This document shows positions 3,548 through 52,040 of a stretch of 64,000 nucleotides of DNA, piece by piece; the first letter of the stretch is position 1, and each line of letters opens with the position of its first letter. The stretch comes from Escherichia coli. Lineage in GTDB: Bacteria; Pseudomonadota; Gammaproteobacteria; Enterobacterales; Enterobacteriaceae. The stretch lies in NCBI RefSeq assembly GCF_002854065.1, contig NZ_CP024154.1. The stretch is one strand, 5' to 3'. The notes under the pieces were generated by a model. The model worked only from the letters and a program-made list of their open reading frames with translations. It was not told the origin of the DNA and ran no database searches. The position numbers and the translations under genes are program-made.

Positions 3548-3619
3548 TGACGCTGGCGGGGAAAAATCTCCGCCTTTTCCAGCCGGTCCCCGGAAAGAGC
3601 AAAAGGATGTCGCCGCAGG

Positions 3620-3945
3620 CTCCGCTTTACCCGGCCATGCGGGGCATGGCCTTGTGGGTTTTCAGTTATGTGGCCTCAGCGCCGTGTGCGGGCTGTGCCG
3701 TGCCTCCATCGTAGCCGGGCTTCTGCGGGCGGGTTGCAAGGTAAGGTGAACCGCTGCGGTCACCCGGTCCCTCCTTCCCGTCTGCCGTGATTTTCCGGTC
3801 GTTCACCCGCTCAGATTTCGCGGTCTCACCCTTCAACTCCCGTCAGCCGTGCGCGTCAGGCTGCGGCTTCCCTTGCGCCCTTGCAACCCTGCAGGCCCGG
3901 CAAAGATGGAGGCACGGCACCGCCCGGTGTCGCGGAATATGTGAA
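3620..3945 (+). repeat. repeat family A copy 1: about 330-bp hairpin-rich element, putative single-strand promoter (Frpo/ssi-like)
   Basis: About 95 percent identical to 10567-10892; contains perfect hairpin GGCCATGC-GGG-GCATGGCC; ends about 20 nt before the klcA start. Confidence 0.6.
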
Positions 3946-3962
3946 CAACGGAGGAAAACATC

Positions 3963-4388
3963 ATGCAATATGCGAAACCTGTCACTCTGAACGTTGAAGA
4001 GTGCGACCGTCTGTCTTTTCTGCCTTACCTGTTTGGCCTGGATTTTCTGTATGCCGAAGCGTCTGTATACGCGCTGGCGAAAAAAATGATGCCGGAATAT
4101 GAAGGCGGATTCTGGCACTTCATCCGCCTGCCGGACGGTGGCGGTTACATGATGCCGGATGGCGACCGTTTCCACATGGTGAACGGTGCAAACTGGTTTG
4201 ACCGTACCGTGAGTGCTGATGCCGCAGGCATCATCCTTACCTCCCTTGTGATTAACCGCCAGTTGTGGCTGTACCACGACAGCGGGGATGCAGGGTTGAC
4301 ACACCTGTACAGGATGCGTGATGCGCAGTTGTGGAGCCACATCGAATTTCACCCCGAATGCAACGCGATTTACGCGGCACTTGACTGA
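3963..4388 (+). CDS. klcA: anti-restriction protein, KlcA/ArdB family
   Basis: 141-aa protein with KlcA/ArdB-like sequence and size; SD GGAGGA upstream; leading-region context. Confidence 0.75.
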
Positions 4389-5045: not shown

Positions 5046-5248
5046 TACAGGGGCAGGCGGTGGAGGCCGCCTGTCAGCCCGCGCGAAAACCCCTGGCAGG
5101 CTGACGCCTGCCGGAAACGAGGGGGGCAGCGCCTGCGGCGCTGCCGGCCCGGCTTTCCGGTCAGAAGGTAGTGTATGGCTGTATGCAGGGAACAGGAGTG
5201 ATATTCCGTGACACTGTCACCGTTTCTGGCTGTCTTTTATTGCGCCCA

Positions 5249-5745
5249 CTTCGGCTCCCGGCTGCCTGGCGGCATCCGGTCGTCAGGCCCGACTCCGACG
5301 GGCAGCTGCTGGCGCACCCGCCAGTCTCCGCCGAACCCGCTGGCGCGGTTTCGGGCTGCCGCTACGGTCCGATGCGTGAAAACCCGGCTTGCAGCGACCG
5401 TTCCGGTCGCGCCGCCCCTGTCGCGCCGTGACCTGCGCTCCCTGCACACCTGACGGTGTGTGAGGAAACTGCGCCTGATGGCGCAGCAGTCCTCCCTCCT
5501 GCCGCCACTCCTGCGGCCTGTTTCCCGCTGTGGACTTTCCGGGGGGCAGACGTAACCCCCTCCCGTTCCATCTGTCCAGGGTGAGATGCACCGGCCACAA
5601 AATTTTTAGCCATGAACCCGGCAAAAAATTTTGCGTCCGCCCCCGGACAGCTGCCCCGTGAGGCGGTAAACGGGCCCCCATCGGAAAGGTCCACTGCGGG
5701 GAGAAACCCCTGTGAAGTGGACGGCAGGAGGAGCTTTCGCTCCTC
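5249..5745 (+). repeat. repeat family B copy 1: about 500-bp hairpin-rich element, putative single-strand promoter/ssi
   Basis: Near-identical to 11592-12090 and partially to 14681-15010; multiple perfect hairpins (GCGACCG-TTC-CGGTCGC, ACACC-TGAC-GGTGT); ends about 70 nt before ssb. Confidence 0.6.
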
Positions 5746-5814
5746 TGAAGGGGCACATGAACGTCCCGTCGCCGGTATCCGGTTTATCTCACATCTTTCA
5801 GTCAGGAGGTTCTT

Positions 5815-6342
5815 ATGAGTGCACGTGGTATCAACAAGGTCATCCTCGTCGGGCGTCTGGGCAATGATCCGGAAGTCCGTTACATCCCCAACGGGGGCGC
5901 AGTGGCAAACCTGCAGGTGGCTACGTCAGAAAGCTGGCGCGACAAACAGACGGGGGAAATGAAGGAACAGACGGAATGGCACCGCGTGGTGCTGTTCGGC
6001 AAGCTCGCGGAAGTGGCTGGCGAATATCTGCGCAAGGGCGCGCAGGTCTACATCGAGGGGCAACTCCGTACCCGTAGCTGGGAAGATAACGGTATCACCC
6101 GTTACGTCACTGAAATTCTTGTTAAGACCACGGGCACCATGCAGATGCTGGGGAGTGCACCACAGCAGAACGCTCAGGCGCAACCGAAGCCTCAGCAGAA
6201 TGGGCAGCCACAGAGTGCTGACGCGACGAAAAAAGGTGGCGCGAAAACGAAAGGCCGTGGACGTAAGGCCGCGCAGCCCGAGCCTCAGCCGCAAACGCCG
6301 GAGGGGGAGGATTACGGGTTTTCAGACGACATCCCGTTCTGA
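5815..6342 (+). CDS. ssb: plasmid single-stranded DNA-binding protein
   Basis: OB-fold SSB N-terminus ([18 protein letters not shown]), Gly/Gln/Pro-rich linker and acidic C-terminal DDIPF tail; SD AGGAGG. Confidence 0.92.
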
Positions 6343-10448: not shown

Positions 10449-10566
10449 ACCAGACATGTATATTTTACGCAGGGACACGCCGATCATGATCGTTTCATAT
10501 CAGGGGTGGTCTGGAGGTCATGCGGCGTGTCCTCTGCACTCGCCGGAATAAGGAAGTCGCCGGCGG

Positions 10567-10892
10567 CTCCGCTTTTACCCGGCCATGCGGGGCATGGCCT
10601 TGTGGGTTTTCAGTTATGTGGCCGCCGTGTCGTGTGCGGGCTGTGCCGTGCCTCCATCGTAGCCGGGCTTCTGCGGGCGGGATGCAAGGTAAGATGAACC
10701 GCTGCGGTCACCCGGTCCCTCCTTCCCGTCTGCCGTGATTTTCCGGTCGTTCACCCGCTCAGATTTCGCGGTCTCACCCTCCAACTCCCGTCAGCCGTGC
10801 GCGTCGGGCTGCGGCTTTCCTTGCGCCCTTGCATCCCTGCAGGCCCGGCAAAGATGGAGGCACGGCACCGCCCGGTGTCGCAGAACATGTGA
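10567..10892 (+). repeat. repeat family A copy 2, putative single-strand promoter
   Basis: About 95 percent identical to 3620-3945; ends immediately upstream of the ardA SD. Confidence 0.6.
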
Positions 10893-10909
10893 CTATGGAG
10901 GATTCGGGA

Positions 10910-11410
10910 ATGTCTGTTGTTGCACCTGCTGTATACGTTGGAACCTGGCACAAATACAACTGTGGAAGCATCGCCGGACGCTGGTTTGACCTGACCACGT
11001 TTGATGATGAGCGCGACTTTTTCGCCGCCTGCCGTGCTCTTCACCAGGATGAAGCCGATCCTGAACTGATGTTTCAGGATTATGAGGGATTCCCGGGGAA
11101 TATGGCCTCTGAATGTCATATCAACTGGGCCTGGGTTGAAGGCTTCCGCCGGGCACGGGATGAAGGCTGCGAAGAGGCTTATCGTCTCTGGGTGGATGAT
11201 ACCGGTGAGACGGATTTTGACAGCTTCCGCGATGCCTGGTGGGGCGAGGCTGACAGTGAGGAGGCTTTTGCGGTTGAGTTCGCCAGTGATACCGGCCTGC
11301 TGGCTGACGTGCCGGAGACGGTGGCGCTCTATTTTGACTATGAGGCGTATGCGCGGGATTTATTCCTGGACTCCTTCACCTTTATTGACGGTCATGTGTT
11401 CCGTCGGTGA
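10910..11410 (+). CDS. ardA: anti-restriction protein ArdA (DNA mimic)
   Basis: 166-aa highly acidic protein (MSVVAPAVYVGTWHKYNCGSIAGRWFDL...); SD GGAGGA; leading-region position. Confidence 0.88.
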   Translation: MSVVAPAVYVGTWHKYNCGSIAGRWFDLTTFDDERDFFAACRALHQDEADPELMFQDYEGFPGNMASECHINWAWVEGFRRARDEGCEEAYRLWVDDTGETDFDSFRDAWWGEADSEEAFAVEFASDTGLLADVPETVALYFDYEAYARDLFLDSFTFIDGHVFRR

Positions 11411-11591
11411 TTTACTCCCCCGCTCCGGCGGGGGTATGGCCTGCCAGGCCGCCGGAAAACCCTGGCAGGCTTACGCCTGCCTGAAATGCAGGAGGGCCGC
11501 GCCTGCGGCGCTGCCCTTCCTGCCCGTCATGGTGTGAGGCATTTTTCTGTTATGTCGTTTCTGTTGTTCTGATTTCCGGAGGCGGGGACAC

Positions 11592-12090
11592 CTTCGGCTC
11601 CCGGCTGCCTGGCGGCATCCGGTCGTCAGGCCCGACTCCGACAGGCAGCTGCTGGCGCACCCGCCAGTCTCCGCCGAACCCGCTGGCGCGGTTTCGGGCT
11701 GCCGCTACGGTCCGATGTCTGAAAAACCAGGCTTGCAGCGACCGTTCCGGTCGCGCCGCCCCTGTCGCGCCGGAAACGGCGCTCCCTGCACACCTGACGG
11801 TGTGTAAGGCCACTGCGCCTGATGGCGCAGTTGTCTGCCCTTCCGCCGCCCCCCCTGCGGCCTGTTTCCCCGCTGTGGACTTTCCGGGGGCTGAAGCGGC
11901 CACAACACGTTTCAGCCGTCCAGGGGAGAGATGTACCAGCCACAAAACTTTTTGCCGCAGGCGTCAAAAACTTTTGCGTCTGCCCCCGGACAACTGCCCC
12001 GTGCCGTGGCAGTCGCTGCCCTATCGGAAAGGTCCACTGCGGGGAGAAACCCCGAAGAAGTGGACGGCAGAAGGGGCTTTCGCCCCTCCG
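11592..12090 (+). repeat. repeat family B copy 2, putative single-strand promoter
   Basis: Near-identical to 5249-5745; ends about 50 nt before ORF 12143. Confidence 0.6.
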
Positions 12091-12142
12091 GGGGAGCAAC
12101 CGGTCGGCCCGGCGACCTGATTCAGCAGAAGGAGACGTTTTC

Positions 12143-12577
12143 ATGACAGTCAGCAGCACGATTTCCGTTTTTTGCCGCGACGGGGTGTTCCGTACCGTTT
12201 ACTGCCACCTGCACGGTGAGCCGACCTGGAACGGTCGCATCCTGCATACCCACTATGCCACTGGTCAGCAGGCCGAAGCCCTGGTTGAACACGGTGATAT
12301 CCGTTGCCTCGGTCCCCGTTGCGACAAACCCGCCGGGCATACGCTTCAGAACCCGGTGGACGGTGTGACGGCTTATTACGGACGTGACAGTGGTTTCCGG
12401 ATGGACAGTGAGGCGCGTGAGTACCGTTCTTTCAGGGAGGCCATCGCCACGGAAAGCACTGAAGAGGTGCGCTTCCATTATGTGTTCATCGACGGCTACT
12501 GGAAGGTGATGTACCGCACGCCGGAAGGCTGGAAGATGAAGTCGCTTGCGCTGGCACTGCGCCGCTGTCCGAAATGA
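12143..12577 (+). CDS. hypothetical protein (144 aa) directly downstream of repeat B2
   Basis: SD AAGGAG 7 nt upstream of ATG; Cys/His-containing; rho-independent terminator hairpin downstream (about 12579-12606). Confidence 0.55.
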   Translation: MTVSSTISVFCRDGVFRTVYCHLHGEPTWNGRILHTHYATGQQAEALVEHGDIRCLGPRCDKPAGHTLQNPVDGVTAYYGRDSGFRMDSEAREYRSFREAIATESTEEVRFHYVFIDGYWKVMYRTPEGWKMKSLALALRRCPK

Positions 12578-12936: not shown

Positions 12937-13000
12937 TTAACCCTTGCCGTCTGCCTGTGCAGGCGGCAGGATACGTTCAGACATCTCACCAGGAGGAACC

Positions 13001-13951
13001 GTGAGTAAGAAGAAAAACACCACAACGCCCACGCCGCATGATGCCGCGTTCCGGTCGTTCCTGGCGAATCCCGACGTTGCCAGGGATTTTCTGGAACTGC
13101 ATCTTCCTGCGGAGCACCGGCAGTTGTGCGACCTGTCCACGCTGAAGCTGGAACCCGCCACCTTTGTTGAGCCGGACCTGCATCAGTACGCCAGCGATAT
13201 CCTCTGGAGCGTGAAAACCACCGGGGGTGAAGATGGTTATGTTTATACGCTCATCGAGCACCAGAGCACAGAAAATCTGTACATGCCTTTTCGCATGTTA
13301 CGCTACAGTGTGGCGGCGATGCAGAGACATCTGGAGCAGCACAAAACGTTGCCACTGGTGATTCCGGTGCTGTTCTATCACGGTGAGCGCAGCCCGTACC
13401 CGTACAGCATGAACTGGCTGGACTGTTTTGAGAATCCGGCACTTGCGGCTAAAATATACACAAAGCCGTTTCCGCTGGTTGATATCACTGTCGTTGATGA
13501 CAATGAAATCATGAACCATCGCCGGATGGCCGCACTGACGCTGCTGATGAAGCATATCCGCCATCGTGACATGATGGAGCTGCTGGACAAACTCCCGCAG
13601 GTCATGGTGGAAATTTCAGATGAACAGGTGCGTGTTCTGATTCATTACATCGTTAACGCAGGGGACTCTGTATCACCGGAATTTATGCGGGCGCTGGCTG
13701 AGCGTCTGCCGCAGCATGAGGATAAACTGATGACTATCGCAGAACGTCTTGAGCAAAAAGGTCGCCAGGAAGGCAGGATGGAAGGACGCATGGAAGGACG
13801 CATGGAAGGACGCATGGAAGGACGCATGGAAGGAGCGCTTGAAAAAGCCCTGGCTATTGCGTGCCAGCTTCAGAAAATGGGGATGACGCCGGAGCAGATT
13901 AAGCAGGCTACCGGACTTTCCGATGACGAACTGAAGAACATCACTCACTGA
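13001..13951 (+). CDS. Rpn-family (YhgA-like, transposase_31) PD-(D/E)XK recombination-promoting nuclease
   Basis: N-terminal YhgA-like motifs (HDAAFRSF, ASDILW, YTLIEHQS); SD CAGGAGGA before GTG 13001; C-terminal tail carries (EGRM)n repeat; terminator hairpin at about 13963-13990. Confidence 0.75.
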   Translation: MSKKKNTTTPTPHDAAFRSFLANPDVARDFLELHLPAEHRQLCDLSTLKLEPATFVEPDLHQYASDILWSVKTTGGEDGYVYTLIEHQSTENLYMPFRMLRYSVAAMQRHLEQHKTLPLVIPVLFYHGERSPYPYSMNWLDCFENPALAAKIYTKPFPLVDITVVDDNEIMNHRRMAALTLLMKHIRHRDMMELLDKLPQVMVEISDEQVRVLIHYIVNAGDSVSPEFMRALAERLPQHEDKLMTIAERLEQKGRQEGRMEGRMEGRMEGRMEGRMEGALEKALAIACQLQKMGMTPEQIKQATGLSDDELKNITH

Positions 13952-14478: not shown

Positions 14479-14680
14479 AAAACACCTTTGAAAAAGTGAA
14501 AAAACTTCACTTTATTTTATCATCATAGTCACCAAGTCAGCGCGATAAATAAGAGTGAAAAAGTAAAGAAATTTCATTTTTTTTAGTTGTAGGTGTCGTG
14601 CTGTTTTCTCTGTTTTCACCTGTGCGGGAGTGGGCGTCAGTGACCACCACATGCCATTGTTGTGCCGTCGTTTTTCTTCA

Positions 14681-15010
14681 GTCGCGCCGGATGCGGCGCT
14701 CCCTGCACACCTGACGGTGTGTAAGGCCACTGCGCCTGATGGCGCAGCTGTCTCTGCCTGTCTGCCGCCGCACTGCGGCCTGTTCTCCGCAGACGGACTT
14801 TCCGGGGGTGCATACACGACCACATCCCGTTTCAGTCGTCCAGGGGAGAGATGTACCAGCCACAAAACTTTTTACCGCAGGCGTCAAAAACTTTTGCGTC
14901 TGCCCCCGGACAACTGCCCCGTGACGTGGTGAGCGTCCCCCGTCGGAAAGGTCCACTGCGGGGAAATCCCCGAAGACCCGGACGGCAGAAGGAGCTTCGC
15001 TCCTCCGGGA
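14681..15010 (+). repeat. repeat family B copy 3 (5'-truncated), putative single-strand promoter
   Basis: Matches the 3' two-thirds of copies B1/B2; ends about 45 nt before ORF 15057. Confidence 0.55.
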
Positions 15011-15056: not shown

Positions 15057-15905
15057 ATGAATCAGACTTTACCCACTGCTGACCTGAATACTGCCGGCAC
15101 GACAGATGTTATTCTGTCTGTGGCTATCGACCGCATCATAGCGCAGCGTAACGAAGGTATTGCACTGTTCATGCAGGCGATGGAATGCCTGGCGACAGCG
15201 CGCAGGATTCTGCTCGATGCTTCCGGTGACATTTTTCTCTACGGGTTTGAAGACTGCGTGACTGACTCCGTTCGGTGCATGGATAAACCGGAAGAAGCAA
15301 AAAAGAATATCACCCGTCTTGCCGACCGGAAAATCTGGGATCGCCTGATGACGGATACTGGCATGTACACCTTCATGAGTTCATGCCAGCGTGATGAGTG
15401 GAACAGCCAGCTGATGAGCGACACCTGTCCTGAAATCACCCTGGACAATGTACTGGCAACTTTTCGCTATCTGAATGCCAGCAAGATGCGGACGTTTGAA
15501 CAGGGACTGATTGATGTCTGGCGGAAATTGTCATGGGATTACAGAACCAATAATCCCTGCCGTCTGGGCAAGAAAATCATTATTGAAAACCTGCTGTACC
15601 GCTGGAGTAACGGGCGTGTGACGCTGGACTGCAGCGGACGGGAGGCACTGGATGACCTGGTATGTCCGTTTTATCTACTGGAGGGACGCAACGTTCCTGA
15701 CTTCAGGAACAGCATCGGGGCGCAGTATGGTGAATATCTCGGGAACGGCGATAATGTCGGTAAGCTGTTAGAAGGGGAATATTTTACGGTGCGTGGCTAC
15801 CAGAAAGGGACCGTACACATTGTCTTTAAGCGTCCTGACCTTGTTGAAAAACTGAATGATATTATTGCACGGCATTATCCTGGTGCATTGCCGCCACGAG
15901 TCTGA
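15057..15905 (+). CDS. hypothetical protein (283 aa); oriT-proximal plus-strand gene of the leading region
   Basis: SD GAGGAG 7 nt upstream of ATG 15057; directly behind repeat B3; terminator hairpin at about 15911-15945. Confidence 0.55.
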   Translation: MNQTLPTADLNTAGTTDVILSVAIDRIIAQRNEGIALFMQAMECLATARRILLDASGDIFLYGFEDCVTDSVRCMDKPEEAKKNITRLADRKIWDRLMTDTGMYTFMSSCQRDEWNSQLMSDTCPEITLDNVLATFRYLNASKMRTFEQGLIDVWRKLSWDYRTNNPCRLGKKIIIENLLYRWSNGRVTLDCSGREALDDLVCPFYLLEGRNVPDFRNSIGAQYGEYLGNGDNVGKLLEGEYFTVRGYQKGTVHIVFKRPDLVEKLNDIIARHYPGALPPRV

Positions 15906-16439: not shown

Positions 16440-16545
16440 GGCTATAATTGACCGAAAAACGGGACAGGATGTGGGAATGTCGGACCGCGCACGCGCACTC
16501 AGACATTCCCCACCTGGTCAGGGCTTTGCCCCGACACCCCGGTAA
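16440..16545. other. oriT: origin of transfer (oriT) with inverted repeats, immediately upstream of nikA
   Basis: GGGAATGTC...GACATTCCC inverted repeat flanking a GC-rich core, plus GGTCAGGGCTTTGCCCCGAC; position and orientation relative to nikA-nikB and the leading region. Confidence 0.65.
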
Positions 16546-25810: not shown

Positions 25811-26083
25811 GCGATCCCAGGGAGAGTGGGTGGCTCTGGCCCGGAGGAAGTCTCTTTTCAACTAACGTTACCAGAATATCGTTATATTCACCTGATCGCA
25901 ATCTGTTCGTTACAGTCTATTGTTCCGGGAGTAGCGATATCGCCTGAAACAAGTATAATCAGCAAGTTAGCCTTGTCTGGAGACTTACCTTCGCATCAAT
26001 CCATTTGCCGTATTTTCGTAAAATTCAACAGGAAATATTCAACGGGAGTGAGAGAACTGCTGTCCGGGGAGGAGGTACAGACG

Positions 26084-26117
26084 CAAAAAAACCGACTGGT
26101 GAGGCCGGTTTTTTTGC
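26084..26117. terminator. bidirectional terminator-like hairpin (copy 2)
   Basis: AAAAAAACCG-ACTGGTGAG-GCCGGTTTTTTT, nearly identical to copy 1. Confidence 0.5.
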
Positions 26118-26431
26118 GATTCCGGATCGAAGTTGGTAGCCCTGACCGGAAGATAACTGCCTATAACTGACTATGAAATAATACGGCTGAAATAATATTT
26201 CTGCAAGCACAGTATAAGTATATACTCGGTGTGTCAGCTTTGAGGCACGTTCTTTCCGGCATATCGTTCACCGGGATGAACAGGTTGCAAGTCCTGGCCA
26301 AAACATCAGGTGGTGCTGGTTTTGGTGCTCTGGCCGGAGAAGAACTGTCTATAACTGACACTATAGAAAACGTGGCGACAGGCAATGTAAGGGCAAACCA
26401 CGGTGTTCTTTCTCCATTGATGGAGAAGCGG

Positions 26432-29483: not shown

Positions 29484-29664
29484 GATGTGTCCTTGTTTTT
29501 TATTATTTTGCATTTCAGAAAATAACACGATGCCTGCAGCCCGGAAAACAGATGTGTGCACACGTAGTCACTTTCCGGCTTTATTTCTGTCCCTGACACA
29601 AAATACGTGGTGGCATGAAAAGGATTGTGGCGGACAGGAAAACGATTAGAATAGCGGCGGGCGC

Positions 29665-29958
29665 TTGAGGCTGTATGCCGAAAGCGTTTTGTGGACGGCA
29701 TGTAGCAGAAAGCCCCAGGCGATTTTTTTATCAATCAACCCAGGGCCCACTGTAATGCCTCAACAACATTATAGTAGCCCGATGACGGCCGAAAGGCAAT
29801 GGAGGGGCTGCGATGCCACAACGAACGTTTTTAATGATGTTAATCGTCGTCTGTGTGACGATACTGTGTTTTGTCTGGATGGTGAGGGATTCGCTTTGCG
29901 GATTTCGTATCGAGCAGGGAAATACGGTGCTTGTGGCAACGTTAGCCTACGAAGTTAA
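29665..29958 (+). CDS. pndC: pndC (mok-like) overlapping leader reading frame of the pnd locus
   Basis: Reading frame that overlaps and ends inside pndA in a different frame, as in hok/mok loci. Confidence 0.5.
   Translation: MRLYAESVLWTACSRKPQAIFLSINPGPTVMPQQHYSSPMTAERQWRGCDATTNVFNDVNRRLCDDTVFCLDGEGFALRISYRAGKYGACGNVSLRS
29690..29780 (-). ncRNA. pndB: expected position of PndB (Sok-like) antisense RNA; not delimited from sequence
   Basis: Placed by analogy to hok/sok architecture only. Confidence 0.25.
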
Positions 29959-47611: not shown

Positions 47612-47962
47612 TCAGAGGTTGTAGTCTTTCCAGGGGTCGATATTCCCCGGAAGATGGTCATTCACCCGATCCACGACGGCATCACAGACCTGGTTTTCCA
47701 GGTCGCGGAGGAGCTTGTCCAGGCTGGGGAACTGCGGAAGAGTGATACTGATGTCCTTGATGCGGGACAGGCAGGACTGCAGGGAGGAGGCGACGTCATT
47801 CTCCCGCTGTGACCATGCCTGGCTGGCTGTGCGCGCCCGCTCCCAGGCGGCTCTGCTGCCGGCTTCGGCAGCGGCCCCCGCCCGGCAGGTGGCGGCACCT
47901 GCCACCGGTGATGCCAGGGTGATGCCGGTCAGTATGACCAGCAGCGTTTTTTTCATGTTCAT
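47612..47962 (-). CDS. TraL-like small secreted protein (by position)
   Basis: Signal peptide; SD AAGGA before ATG 47962. Confidence 0.5.
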   Translation of the reverse strand: MNMKKTLLVILTGITLASPVAGAATCRAGAAAEAGSRAAWERARTASQAWSQRENDVASSLQSCLSRIKDISITLPQFPSLDKLLRDLENQVCDAVVDRVNDHLPGNIDPWKDYNL

Positions 47963-47978
47963 GGTCGTCCTTACCGGC

Positions 47979-50900
47979 TCATCGGCCGGGGCTGTGGGAT
48001 TGTGCCTGTTGCAGAGTTTTTTCCTGCCTGTCCTCCGCCTTTTGGCTGTCAGACCACTCTTTCCAGGTCTGCTCAAAACCCAGAGAGCGGAAAAGCTTGT
48101 CCGGTTGCTCTTCCGGTTTGTGGATGGCGGCAAACAACGGGGAGTCCTGTTGCTTCAGGTGAAACTGCATTATTTGTGGGGACGGACGCTGATGATTATT
48201 CTCATCATGGTTAACAGCTTCACCGTAACCGGCAAACTGCAGACCGTTATCCGTCAGGGCATTGATAACCAGCTGACGGTTGTCAGCTGACGGGGTGGCC
48301 AGTGCCGGGTAAAGGGTGCCGTTCAGGCGGACCACGCCCTGCAGATGATCATCTGCGCTGTGGACCAGCAGAAGATTCAACTGACGATTGTCCTTATCGG
48401 CAGAGGCGATGGCTGGTATCAGTTCATTGGGGGCATTACCAGCGAGGGGGAGTCGCATTGATTGATCCTGAGGTGCTGATGCAGGTTGCCTGTCTTCACC
48501 AATGTACAGATTATTGGGAGGATTTTTGGGGGAGCGAACTTCCTGCATTATCTGTGGCCAGTGTTGTTGCATCTGTAACATCACCTGGCTGAATGTTGCC
48601 ATCGGAAACTCCAGGGTATGCTGACCCGCATGAGGTTGGTCATTATTAACGGTAATGCCGTTACTGACCGGGGTTATGGCCCAGATATTACGGATACGAT
48701 CCCGCGTTTCACCGGACAGCCGGAATGTTTCTCTCGCCTGCAGTGTCAGTGTGACGGGGTCACCCTTCTGATGGTTTTTGACCAGTTCTTCCAGGCCGTT
48801 TCCCCAGTATTCCCGTTTGCCACTGCGGTTGGTGAGCTCCACAAAAAAGCAGCGCCCTTTTCCGGGCGCATACTCTTTTTCTCCGTAGTTTGTCAGGACG
48901 GCAGTCACACTTTCACCGGGGCTGAGCTTGCCGGGCGGCTCTTCCACCGGTGTGTCGGGTTGCTGCGGCTGTGCACTGACAGGGGCTTTTTCTGGCGCAG
49001 ACGACGGGGCGGCGGGGTGTTCCGGTCTGTCGGCCCGGGGGGCTTCAGCTTTTGCCGTGACCGGCGCTTCCGGATGCGGTGTTTCAGCCGTACTGCCTGC
49101 TGTTTGTTCAGCCTCTGCCTTCGGTGACACAGGGGGGGCCGGTTGGGCCATTGTTGTCTCTTCCGGTGACTGGCGGTTGAGTTCCGGCGTGGGTCTGTGG
49201 GTGACAATGGCATCATGCGCCATCTCTTTTTCCTTGCGGAGTTTTTCCAGTGCTGCCCGCTGGGCCGGGAGTTTCATGCGAACCTTGATGTCGTATTCGA
49301 CAATCAGCTGCATGGCTTTTTGCTTAAAGGCATCACTGCCGGTCAGCTCGATAACGCCGCCATAGAAGTTGGTGGCCACAGCAAGGGCAGCCAGGACCTT
49401 TTTGTCATCCGCGCTGGCGCCATCCACCATTTCGAGACAGTAGAGTCTGTCCAGGAAGGCGGGTTCACCGTCAACGCTGTAGAGCGCAGTCCTGTCGGGA
49501 AACTCTTTGTGTGTAAGATTTTTAAGGATCTCGTCCAGGTTGTGCCGCTGCGGACTGTCGGGACGGCGGGGTGCAAAGATAATCGTGTCCGGTTCCGCTG
49601 ACGATGTGTCTTCCGGGCTGGTTTCCGGTGGTGATGGTGGTGCGACCTCCTCTGTTGCTGTTTCAGCCTCCGTGGGCTTTTTCTCCTGAATAACGGAAGG
49701 TTCTGAGGTGCGTGATTTCACACCGGTCAGAAAACGGCGCAGACGGCTGAAAAGCGATGGCGTTTCAGGGCGGGCTGCTTCATTCGCTGTGCTGGTCTCA
49801 GTGGCGGACACAAGACGCTCTTCCTGCAGTTTATCTTCAGCCGTCGGTTCAGCGGTGGCCTGCCGGACTGGCTGAGTTTCTGCAGGTTCAGAAGGTGAGG
49901 CTGTTTCTGCTGTGCCGGTGTTGTGAACAGCAACCGTGGCATCGGCATTGAGCTCCTCAGCGGGTGCGTTCCTGTTGTCATCGGTGATGTCAGAGGAGTG
50001 CTCTGCGCCGGTCTCAGCGGCAGACGCAACGCTCTTTTCCTGTGCTTTATCTTCTGCCGTCAGTTCAGTGGTCACCTGCTGAACTGGCCGCATCCCGGCC
50101 GGTTCAGAAACTGTATTTGTCTCCGCGTTGTCGGTGTTGTGAACAGTGGGGGCCCCCGGAGTGTCAGCGTTGAGATCTTCCGCAAATGCGCTCCAGTCGT
50201 CAGCGCTGGCCATGGAAACCTGCACTTGTTCTTCAGACTGCGTTGTGGTGGTGTGCTGTGTCCCGGCCGCGTCGGAGAGGGAGGTTTCCGGTGTGTCTTC
50301 ACTCCGGGGATGTTCTTCTGCCTGCGTGCTCTGGTTGTCAGCGGTGGTGGCAGAGGCATTTTCTTCACCGGTATCAGCGGTAGCCACAGAGGCATTTTCT
50401 TCTCTGGTATCGGCAGCGGAAACAACGTTCTCGTGTGGTTTATCTTCTGCGGTCGGTTCAGTGGTTGCCTGCTGCACGGACTGCATCCCGGCAGGTTCAG
50501 GAAGCGTTCCTGTTTCTGCTGTGTCGCTGTTGTGAGCGGTGTCTGTACCTGTGGCGTCTGTATTGAGGTCTTCCTGGTCGCCAGCGGTAGGCACAGAGGT
50601 ATTCTCTGTGCCGGTATCAGCGGCAGACGCAATATTCTCCAGTGGTTTATCCGGGGATAACGTCTCCGCAGTTACTGATTGCAGGGATGCATAGGCGGCA
50701 TAGTCATCTTCATATGCCTGGTTTTCTGTATCGTCGGAGTGGGTGTCATAAGGCGTATCCTGTGTCGCCAGCTCCGTTTCCGGGGCTGTGCTCTGTCTGT
50801 TTTCAGGGGACATTTGTGGCTTCTCATCTTTTACCGGTGTGAATATCAGGTTGTCGATCACGACAGCCTCACGATGGTCGGCAGTGTCACTGTTGGGTGT

Positions 50901-52040
50901 GGGGATACCGATATGTTTTAACTGTGCATTCATGGCATTCTGAAAGTTGTCCCGTCCCCGGCTGGCGTCCAGGTCATTGAAATCGGTCAGTCCCTGTGCT
51001 TTTTCCGCCTCCGTAAAGGCCGGAATAATGACTTCGCCATTCGTGACTTCTGCGGCCTTTGTTGCACTAAAAACCCCTTTGTTAATTTCCCGTTGATGAT
51101 CGTTGTCGGCACAGAAGACAAAGGGGCTGTCAGTCCAGATTTGGCGGGCATTTTCTGCCACGGCAATCATATTGCTGGCATCAACTGTCATCAGAACCGG
51201 AAGGCCGGTTGCTTCGTGCAGGGAGGCTGCAGTAGCGTAACCTTCCGCAAATAACAGGGGGCGGCCATTTTCCGGGGTTCCGAAGGTGAACCAGTTGCCG
51301 GTTTTCTCGGAGTCTTTCAGAATGCGGGCATCCTTCCCGCCGGTGACCGGAATACGCTGGTACGAACGTATTTCTCCCCGGCCGTTGCTGAAGGGAATAA
51401 CCAGCTCATTTTTATTGTTCAGCCGCACGCCAGGCGCGGCCCGGATGCCCTTGCGCGTCAGGTATTCATGTGCTGTTGCCTGTGGCAACCTGTTAATATA
51501 GGAGCGGGCATAGCCGGCCTGTTTGTTATACTGTTGCTGCAGTTTACGTGCGTTATCATCGCGCTGTTGCTGAGCGAATGCCCGCAGATGCAGTCTGGCC
51601 AGAGGATCGTGTTGTTCTCCGCCGGAAAATACCCAGTTTGTGGGACTGTCATCGGCGCTCCGGTAGTCGCGGTACCAGCCGGCGGGACGACCATCAAGAT
51701 AGGCCCTGTATGCGCCACTTTTGGCCCCTTTTTTGTCATCCCGGGTGGCCACTCTGTGTATGGCTCCGTCCATCTGTGGCAATCCCTGAATAACCAGCCC
51801 GGCGTTTTCCAGGACCTGAGCAAATTCAGTGACCGGATCGCCGGCATCCATCGACAGTTCCTGTGGCCGGGGTAACCAGCGCTCCAGCAGTGAAAGTTCG
51901 GTACCCGCCCGGGCATACCAGAGCTTTTTTTCTGGATCCCATGCGACAGCTTTGCGGCCATTTAACGGGGGAACCGCATTTTTTACGGCTTCTGTCTCCT
52001 CAGGCGGGACAGCAAGCCAGGTTCGATATCTGGACTTCAT
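47979..52040 (-). CDS. sogL: Sog DNA primase (SogL), transferred with the DNA during conjugation
   Basis: 1353 aa; N-terminal primase/Toprim-like region (EGYATAASLHEATGLPVLMTVDASN); long acidic repeat-containing linker. Confidence 0.85.
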   Translation of the reverse strand: MKSRYRTWLAVPPEETEAVKNAVPPLNGRKAVAWDPEKKLWYARAGTELSLLERWLPRPQELSMDAGDPVTEFAQVLENAGLVIQGLPQMDGAIHRVATRDDKKGAKSGAYRAYLDGRPAGWYRDYRSADDSPTNWVFSGGEQHDPLARLHLRAFAQQQRDDNARKLQQQYNKQAGYARSYINRLPQATAHEYLTRKGIRAAPGVRLNNKNELVIPFSNGRGEIRSYQRIPVTGGKDARILKDSEKTGNWFTFGTPENGRPLLFAEGYATAASLHEATGLPVLMTVDASNMIAVAENARQIWTDSPFVFCADNDHQREINKGVFSATKAAEVTNGEVIIPAFTEAEKAQGLTDFNDLDASRGRDNFQNAMNAQLKHIGIPTPNSDTADHREAVVIDNLIFTPVKDEKPQMSPENRQSTAPETELATQDTPYDTHSDDTENQAYEDDYAAYASLQSVTAETLSPDKPLENIASAADTGTENTSVPTAGDQEDLNTDATGTDTAHNSDTAETGTLPEPAGMQSVQQATTEPTAEDKPHENVVSAADTREENASVATADTGEENASATTADNQSTQAEEHPRSEDTPETSLSDAAGTQHTTTTQSEEQVQVSMASADDWSAFAEDLNADTPGAPTVHNTDNAETNTVSEPAGMRPVQQVTTELTAEDKAQEKSVASAAETGAEHSSDITDDNRNAPAEELNADATVAVHNTGTAETASPSEPAETQPVRQATAEPTAEDKLQEERLVSATETSTANEAARPETPSLFSRLRRFLTGVKSRTSEPSVIQEKKPTEAETATEEVAPPSPPETSPEDTSSAEPDTIIFAPRRPDSPQRHNLDEILKNLTHKEFPDRTALYSVDGEPAFLDRLYCLEMVDGASADDKKVLAALAVATNFYGGVIELTGSDAFKQKAMQLIVEYDIKVRMKLPAQRAALEKLRKEKEMAHDAIVTHRPTPELNRQSPEETTMAQPAPPVSPKAEAEQTAGSTAETPHPEAPVTAKAEAPRADRPEHPAAPSSAPEKAPVSAQPQQPDTPVEEPPGKLSPGESVTAVLTNYGEKEYAPGKGRCFFVELTNRSGKREYWGNGLEELVKNHQKGDPVTLTLQARETFRLSGETRDRIRNIWAITPVSNGITVNNDQPHAGQHTLEFPMATFSQVMLQMQQHWPQIMQEVRSPKNPPNNLYIGEDRQPASAPQDQSMRLPLAGNAPNELIPAIASADKDNRQLNLLLVHSADDHLQGVVRLNGTLYPALATPSADNRQLVINALTDNGLQFAGYGEAVNHDENNHQRPSPQIMQFHLKQQDSPLFAAIHKPEEQPDKLFRSLGFEQTWKEWSDSQKAEDRQEKTLQQAQSHSPGR

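Follow-up and report, generated by a model that had tools for sequence, protein, structure and literature searches.

What is the role of a hairpin-rich sequence that occurs three times, in lengths of up to about 500 nt, in a 64,000-nt stretch of Escherichia coli DNA (contig NZ_CP024154.1, the whole of this stretch being called here the window), upstream of ssb and of two other genes? The sequence-only reading of this DNA took the repeats for single-strand promoters or ssi elements, which would fold in the transferred strand. The answer depends on the extent of the copies, on their kinship with known elements, on which DNA strand forms the structure and on how well other explanations of the same hairpins stand.

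A repeat search and a MAFFT alignment give three direct repeats in one shared orientation: copy A at 5249-5748, copy B at 11592-12092 and copy C at 14679-15009. All three copies that had been located before are real and well beyond what chance would give, and the interval of 14681-15010 given then for C was right to within 2 nt. Copies A and B have in common a unit of about 500 nt formed by two modules, a 170-nt flank (5249-5417 in A and 11592-11761 in B) and a 330-nt core; C, already described as partial, carries the gene-proximal 330 nt only. The description of the copies as near-identical is valid for the flank, with 97% identity between A and B, and not for the cores, which are 80-89% identical to each other and are separated by several indels of 1-2 nt. 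Comparison of the repeats by blastn and repeat search found no further copy elsewhere in the 64-kb window. Each copy ends just upstream of a plus-strand gene, the distance to the start codon being 67 nt for A (ssb, start at 5815), 51 nt for B (12143) and 45 nt for C (15057). Long open reading frames on both strands cross all three copies, and a coding function was considered for them and rejected: because of the 1-2 nt indels there is no reading frame common to the copies across the element, so these frames are spurious, as had been supposed, and are a by-product of GC-rich, palindromic DNA. Perfect short hairpins are also present in copy A, namely CACACC-GTCA-GGTGTG at 5445-5460, CTGCGCC-ATCA-GGCGCAG at 5469-5486 and GCGACCG-GAA-CGGTCGC within 5391-5412.

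The identity of the repeats is settled by the comparison with F Frpo and ColIb ssi sequences that the sequence-only reading had proposed. The blastn queries were the known Frpo/ssi sequences listed in Supplementary Table 2 of Samuel et al. 2024. Frpo3 of ColIb-P9 corresponds to 5418-5748 of the window with 98.8% identity, Frpo2 to 11762-12090 with 87.9% and Frpo1 to 14679-15007 with 98.8%, over 326-331 nt. The E-values of the copies against the published elements range from 1e-73 to 1e-168, those of the ColIb Frpo3, Frpo2 and Frpo1 matches from 1e-115 to 1e-168. In addition, ssiD of F, the original Frpo, matches the central ~130 nt of each copy, around the apex of the fold, with 74-76% identity over 80-135 nt (E 2e-14 to 7e-8). 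The ssi3, ssi2 and ssi1 elements of pESBL-EA11 are 99.4, 92.0 and 98.8% identical to A, B and C, respectively, in the same gene contexts, and for copy A the 99.4% identity holds across all 500 nt. Judged by these matches, A is ssi3, B is ssi2 and C is ssi1 (Frpo3, Frpo2 and Frpo1) of ColIb-P9, and they are homologues of Frpo1 and Frpo2 of F. The ColIb-P9 elements ssi1, ssi2 and ssi3, which are Frpo1-3 of AJ238399, were reportedly described by Bates et al. 1999 and Nasim et al. 2004, and F Frpo1 (ssiD) is said to go back to Masai & Arai 1997.

For this family, it is established that the hairpin acts as a promoter only in single-stranded DNA, that it is used by the host RNA polymerase, that it yields both mRNA and a primer, and that it is off in the duplex (PMC9849209, PMC12672017, PMC7690428, bioRxiv 10.64898/2026.01.09.698686). 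Wen et al. 2025 classified ssi1-3 of pESBL as class 1 promoters, with starts mapped by 5' RACE in transconjugants, and their RNA-seq and 5' RACE data place these elements at the head of the most strongly induced operons (PMC12672017). We think, with a probability of about 0.93, that the three repeats of the window are the class 1 ssDNA promoters of the IncI-complex leading region. The finding made from the sequence is correct in this respect and, at the same time, already known and recently validated in vivo. Copy B is only 88% identical to ssi2 of ColIb and 92% to that of pESBL, so the activity expected of this copy rests on homology.

The likeness to ssi1-3 of ColIb-P9 and pESBL extends to how the elements are oriented and ordered from oriT, to the genes that follow them and to the hairpin architecture. 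Unlike in ColIb-P9, copy B is a diverged ssi2 allele and the leading region is shorter by ~660 bp. The F elements Frpo1 (ssiD) and Frpo2, also named ssp1a and ssp1b, have in common with the present repeats the kind of element, the position upstream of ssb and of the oriT-proximal operon, and an apex region of ~130 nt that is homologous at 74-80%, whereas no sequence relationship exists in the lower half of the stem, where F-type elements carry GCCGCGGTTTTGACG.... A scan of contigs with the 16-mer CGACCGGAACGGTCGC was of little use for finding more relatives: it gave ~120 matches, mostly by chance in GC-rich genomes, and the genuine relatives among them were only one Citrobacter contig and two 'Streptomyces' contigs. 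The latter, labelled Streptomyces morookaense DSM 40503, are short contigs with 87-96% identity to this enterobacterial leading region, flank included, and most likely they are assembly contamination.

The repeats sit among genes arranged as in an IncI leading region, those for a methylase, a klcA-type antirestriction protein, ssb, DUF905, parB-like, psiB, psiA and ardA, followed further on by mobC, nikA and the nikB relaxase; the window is thus an IncI-complex leading region. The genes ssb, parB-like, psiB, psiA, ardA, nikA and nikB all lie on the plus strand. Copy A heads an operon formed by ssb (5815-6342, plus strand), DUF905, parB-like, psiB and psiA. Downstream of copies B and C are the genes that also follow ssi2 and ssi1 of pESBL, in the window a 144-aa gene (12143-12577, plus strand) whose product matches only PHROG families of unknown function, and a DUF4942 gene (15057-15905, plus strand). 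Among the other genes of this region, the one at 12944-13951 is annotated as Rpn family in related plasmids, and the adjoining 81-aa ORF at 13951-14196 matches only the C-terminal end of TIGR01784 (Rpn-family nuclease/transposase); the Rpn gene seems to be split or to carry a frameshift. At least 5000 plasmid records match the sequence, most of them from conjugative plasmids of Escherichia, Klebsiella, Salmonella and Shigella. Matches of 100% were found in plasmids of ~90 kb, and for one of these the typing gives IncK2/Z, a MOBP relaxase and an MPF_I mating system.

The oriT nick-region motif CATCCTG|T lies at 16464-16471 on the minus strand, in the intergenic space between the mobC-like gene and nikA, upstream of nikA/nikB. 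The cleavage position within it is presumably that of the MOBP (RP4/R64-type) nick regions. Since the motif is on the minus strand upstream of nikA, the transferred strand (T strand) is the minus strand, which is the template of all downstream genes. In the 5'->3' direction this strand heads to lower coordinates, passing first through copy C, at 1.5 kb from the motif, then through B at 4.4 kb and finally through A at 10.7 kb. The exact distance from the nick motif to copy C is 1458 nt, and the coordinate of Frpo1 in AJ238399 (ColIb-P9) is 1459. As a separate observation, the octamer YATCCTGY occurs 20 times in the window, compared with 8.6 ± 2.8 times in dinucleotide shuffles (none of 100 shuffles reaches 20), and only the occurrence at 16464-16471 is in the oriT region.

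When the minus-strand core is folded as ssDNA, it gives in the 5'->3' direction a short 5' hairpin, an imperfect hairpin of ~230 nt and three short near-perfect hairpins. The large hairpin has an A+T-rich apical stem and a conserved bulge of ~10 nt on the 3' arm. In copy A it spans 5495-5731 of the minus strand, its base being formed by pairing of CCTCCTGCCG with CGGCAGGAGG, its apical stem by 5597-5634 and its unpaired bulge by 5582-5592; the three short hairpins, at 5423-5438, 5445-5460 and 5469-5486, lie 3' of it on the T strand. The equivalent main hairpins, also of the minus strand, are at 11840-12073 within the core of B (11762-12092) and at 14761-14991 in C. The DNA folding energies of the T strand are -104.8 kcal/mol for A (z -11.3), -106.9 for B (z -11.0) and -97.4 for C (z -8.3), with 0 of 100 shuffles as good. 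A sliding fold of 300 nt along the whole 64 kb has a mean of -45 and a standard deviation of 11 kcal/mol, and the three repeat loci reach -84 to -97. No more than six loci in the 64 kb fall to -75 kcal/mol or lower, namely the three repeats, another two hairpins of the leading region and one unrelated site.

Compensatory substitutions support the fold as well. For the core, seven ColIb-type sequences were aligned, these being the three of the window, ssi2 of ColIb, one Citrobacter copy and two from other E. coli plasmids. Their consensus has 114 pairs, with 92.9% of the cells paired, and compensatory changes are seen in 17 pairs, compared with 7.1 ± 1.7 in column shuffles (0 of 500 as high) and 2-10 in slid controls; as the seven cores are kin, the shuffle count is not a probability, and the slid controls agree in direction. 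Independently of this alignment, the T strand is the more stable of the two DNA strands, by 9-20 kcal/mol, in 13 of 13 class 1 elements from 6 plasmids, and this asymmetry arises because variable positions of the stem use G.T pairs on the T strand. The folding in the transferred strand that had been claimed for the repeats is well borne out by these data.

The strand asymmetry bears directly on the possibility that the repeats act at the RNA level, as structured 5' leaders of riboswitch or attenuator kind or as small RNAs, made in either case from the double-stranded plasmid. The plus strand does fold well, with -89 kcal/mol and z -7.9 for copy A, and the transcription start predicted below, if right, would put part of the 5' arm in the mRNA leader. 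However, it is the mRNA-sense strand that loses the 9-20 kcal/mol in every one of the 13 elements, as the G.T pairs at variable stem positions turn into A.C mismatches in it. Besides, no Rfam family matches the repeats, either at the gathering threshold or at E<=1, and the homologues are reported to depend on ssDNA and to lose activity in the duplex. An RNA of minus sense would share the sequence of the T strand, so the wobble test is silent about it, and the consensus scan gave no minus-strand promoter from which it could be made. We consider action at the RNA level very improbable.

Where in the single-strand promoter would the RNA polymerase bind? The sequence-only reading expected -35 and -10 hexamers within a stable stem. 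The stem is indeed very stable, and the hexamers are weak matches to sigma-70: a consensus scan of both strands gave 0 sites, and the best scores of a PWM scan are 2-7 of ~17 possible bits, with weak and inconsistent hits. Comparison of 13 diverse elements was more informative. Their 3' arms carry a -35-like hexamer (TGGACA/G/T, TAGACA, TGGCCA, TGGATG, TTGGAT or TTGCGC). In 12 of the 13, TG(G/C) comes 16-17 nt later, and beyond it an internal loop holds a degenerate hexamer; in the thirteenth, Frpo2 of F, the spacing is 20 nt with a 3-nt bulge. The spacer between the -35-like hexamer and TG(G/C) varies in sequence, compensated on the other arm. Furthermore, in the Frpo-acrIIA4 construct of Samuel et al. 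2024, which is functional, the hairpin of F Frpo2 is reduced to its upper two thirds. The promoter must therefore be sought within ~95 nt of the apex, and this apex-near part is also the one conserved between F-type and ColIb-type elements. The bulge of the 3' arm brings the A+T-rich apex ~11 bp upstream of the -35-like hexamer, on the 5'-arm side, which is the position of an UP element.

The layout that we prefer would accordingly consist of an UP-like apex, a -35 of the form T(G/T)GAC(N), a spacer of 16-17 nt, TG(G/C) and a degenerate -10 in the loop. In copy A, the candidate promoter would occupy 5550-5578 of the 3' arm on the minus strand, with the -35-like TGGACA at 5573-5578, a 17-nt spacer and GGG+TTACGT at 5550-5558 in the internal loop, a position conserved in 13 relatives. 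The start of transcription is predicted near 5675-5685. The -10 hexamer of this layout is poorly conserved, and T(A/G)CATC in the conserved bulge at 5582-5592 may serve as an alternative -10. Another candidate, TTGACG-17-TTTTGT at the base of the 5' arm, was the best PWM hit in F-type relatives and was rejected: its pairing partner is missing from the construct of Samuel et al., and it has no counterpart in ColIb-type elements.

The working of the class 1 promoters in this plasmid can be pictured as follows. The minus strand would enter the recipient with its 5' end first, from the nick near 16465, and before synthesis of the complementary strand each 330-nt core would fold on itself into the ~230-nt imperfect hairpin, whose stem would mimic a double-stranded sigma-70 promoter. 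The host RNA polymerase would then read down the 5' arm into ssb-psiB-psiA, into the operon of the 144-aa ORF and into the DUF4942 gene, giving a burst of establishment and anti-defence proteins, and the same transcripts would be able to prime the complementary strand. Once the region becomes duplex, the hairpin would be lost and the promoter switched off. The dependence of transcription on ssDNA, the start sites and the priming are taken in this picture from the literature on near-identical sequences, and would hold here by analogy.

As these elements were first found as single-strand initiation signals, and the RNA of Frpo primes DNA synthesis in vitro and in vivo, they might be thought of as priming sites only, of the classical ssi or primosome type, with no part in driving expression. 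This is very hard to reconcile with the work of Couturier et al. 2023, in which deletions of Frpo1/2 in F abolish early expression and protein production (PMC9849209), or with the top-induced operons headed by ssi1-3 of pESBL (PMC12672017), and we give it hardly any credence. Frpo transcripts do prime conversion in vivo (Fraikin et al. 2026 preprint, bioRxiv 10.64898/2026.01.09.698686); as this priming is done by RNA polymerase from the same promoter, it is a second output of one mechanism and no true alternative. Equally little credence is given to the idea that the repeats are copies of a non-autonomous mobile element (MITE- or REP-like) or recombination scars with no dedicated function, as three dispersed GC-rich, hairpin-rich copies on which annotators place spurious 'hypothetical proteins' could suggest, since they have a single orientation, each directly before the gene that opens a leading-region operon, keep these positions in IncI, IncF, Klebsiella and Citrobacter plasmids, show compensatory substitutions in their stems, and were found neither elsewhere in the window nor at unrelated sites with target-site duplications.

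Besides the core that acts as a single-strand promoter in its relatives, copies A and B contain the 170-nt flank. The published ColIb coordinates that were compared (328-331 nt) stop at ...GGCGCGACAG, whereas the homology between A and B, and also with other plasmids, continues for 170 nt. On the T strand (minus), the flank of copy A forms four hairpins within 5249-5417, which are H4 at 5258-5279, H3 at 5309-5324, H2 at 5331-5355 and H1 at 5391-5412. In an alignment of 12 copies, these four hairpins have 97% of their cells paired, and compensatory changes occur in 10 pairs, compared with 4.9 ± 1.3 in shuffles (0 of 500 as high) and 0-3 in slid controls. One helix switches from TGCC/GGCA to CAGC/GCTG and to GCGC/GCGC, and the T strand has 23 G.T cells versus 1 A.C. 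The fold of the flank alone is weak (z -2.6), so the support for it comes from covariation and not from energy. The identity between the flanks of A and B could be explained by gene conversion between direct repeats, which leaves, however, the covariation of the flank across genera unexplained.

In several plasmids, nhmmer placed the flank next to class 1 cores, directly upstream in the plus sense. Its carriers include IncF plasmids, at 96% identity, a Klebsiella quasipneumoniae IncF plasmid with two copies, a K. aerogenes plasmid with two and a Citrobacter MOBP plasmid with three, one of which has the proximal part only. F also carries just the proximal part, the first ~75 nt with GCGACCG-GAA-CGGTCGC, at 86-92% identity. 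The Citrobacter version matches at least 5000 records from Klebsiella, Escherichia, Enterobacter, Salmonella, Citrobacter, Raoultella, Serratia and Kosakonia. Between the window and the K. aerogenes and Citrobacter plasmids, identity is 75-79% in the flank, 77% in ssb and 64-71% in parB-like, psiB and ardA; for one IncF plasmid, it is 96.5% in the flank and 84-89% in the neighbouring genes. Across Enterobacterales plasmids, the conservation of the flank equals or exceeds that of ssb. Neither ssi1 (copy C) nor the Frpo construct of Samuel et al., which is functional, has the flank, so promoter activity does not require it.

Thus, we regard it as possible, and still rather doubtful, that the flank is a separate functional module, a four-hairpin T-strand array located beyond the 328-331-nt ssi coordinates compared. 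It lies on the side where an upstream RNA polymerase and the DNA polymerase of the complementary strand would arrive, which suggests an insulating or stalling role. One may speculate that it works as an insulator or roadblock that prolongs the single-stranded state of the promoter hairpin, like the role reported for ssp2, or else as a site for priming or protein loading. A rule by which the flank is present only where a co-directional operon lies upstream had to be given up: it is true for most copies, and one Citrobacter copy follows a minus-strand gene. This reading would lose weight through gene conversion between the direct repeats, or if the flank was already described in the earlier ssi literature.

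Several other structured loci were observed in the window. A second family of direct repeats, at 3603-3955 and 10550-10902, has 94.6% identity and T-strand hairpins of -93 and -100 kcal/mol; the first is closely followed by the klcA-type antirestriction gene (3963-4388), and the second precedes ardA (10910-11410). These two loci are the equivalents of the class 2 ssDNA promoters (ssp2) reported by Wen et al. 2025 and Fraikin et al. 2026. A T-strand hairpin at 1040-1380 (-94.6 kcal/mol, z -5.7), which directly precedes the DNA methylase gene (~1379-2062), is probably the counterpart of the class 3 ssDNA promoter that pESBL has for M.EcoGIX. Promoters of classes 2 and 3 (ssp2, ssp3) share with those of class 1 the leading region and the logic of a T-strand hairpin, in their case upstream of anti-restriction or methylase genes, but they have no sequence similarity to the class 1 repeats and form a separate repeat family. 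Moreover, a 43-nt repeat with the hairpin GGCAGGC-TGAC-GCCTGCC occurs at 5084-5126 and 11453-11495 (81% mutual identity), 39-43 nt past the stop codons of the operons that precede A and B, and is also present in F upstream of Frpo2 (5868-5908 of the F sequence compared); possibly the upstream transcription units stop at this repeat. Outside the leading region, strong folding is confined to one GC-rich segment at 47640-48060, which reaches about -96 kcal/mol on one strand and -94 on the other, shows no strand asymmetry and overlaps the end of a minus-strand ORF of 1353 aa (47979-52040). Two Rfam families scored above the gathering threshold in the window, the sok antitoxin RNA at 29659-29815 (plus strand, 124.7 bits) and the AgrB antisense RNA family at 26083-26170 (minus strand, 47.7 bits).

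In practice, the three loci can with confidence receive the annotations ssi3, ssi2 and ssi1, and the overlapping ORFs called 'hypothetical protein' can be removed. The value for annotation is real and the value as a discovery is low, the flank being in our opinion the sole part worth following up. The ssi/Frpo elements set how fast SOS inhibitors, SSB and anti-restriction functions are expressed from a resistance plasmid on its arrival, and research on plasmid establishment is currently directed at them. If the flank influences the duration of the promoter's single-stranded state, the recently proposed coupling between DNA conversion and early gene expression would gain a component.
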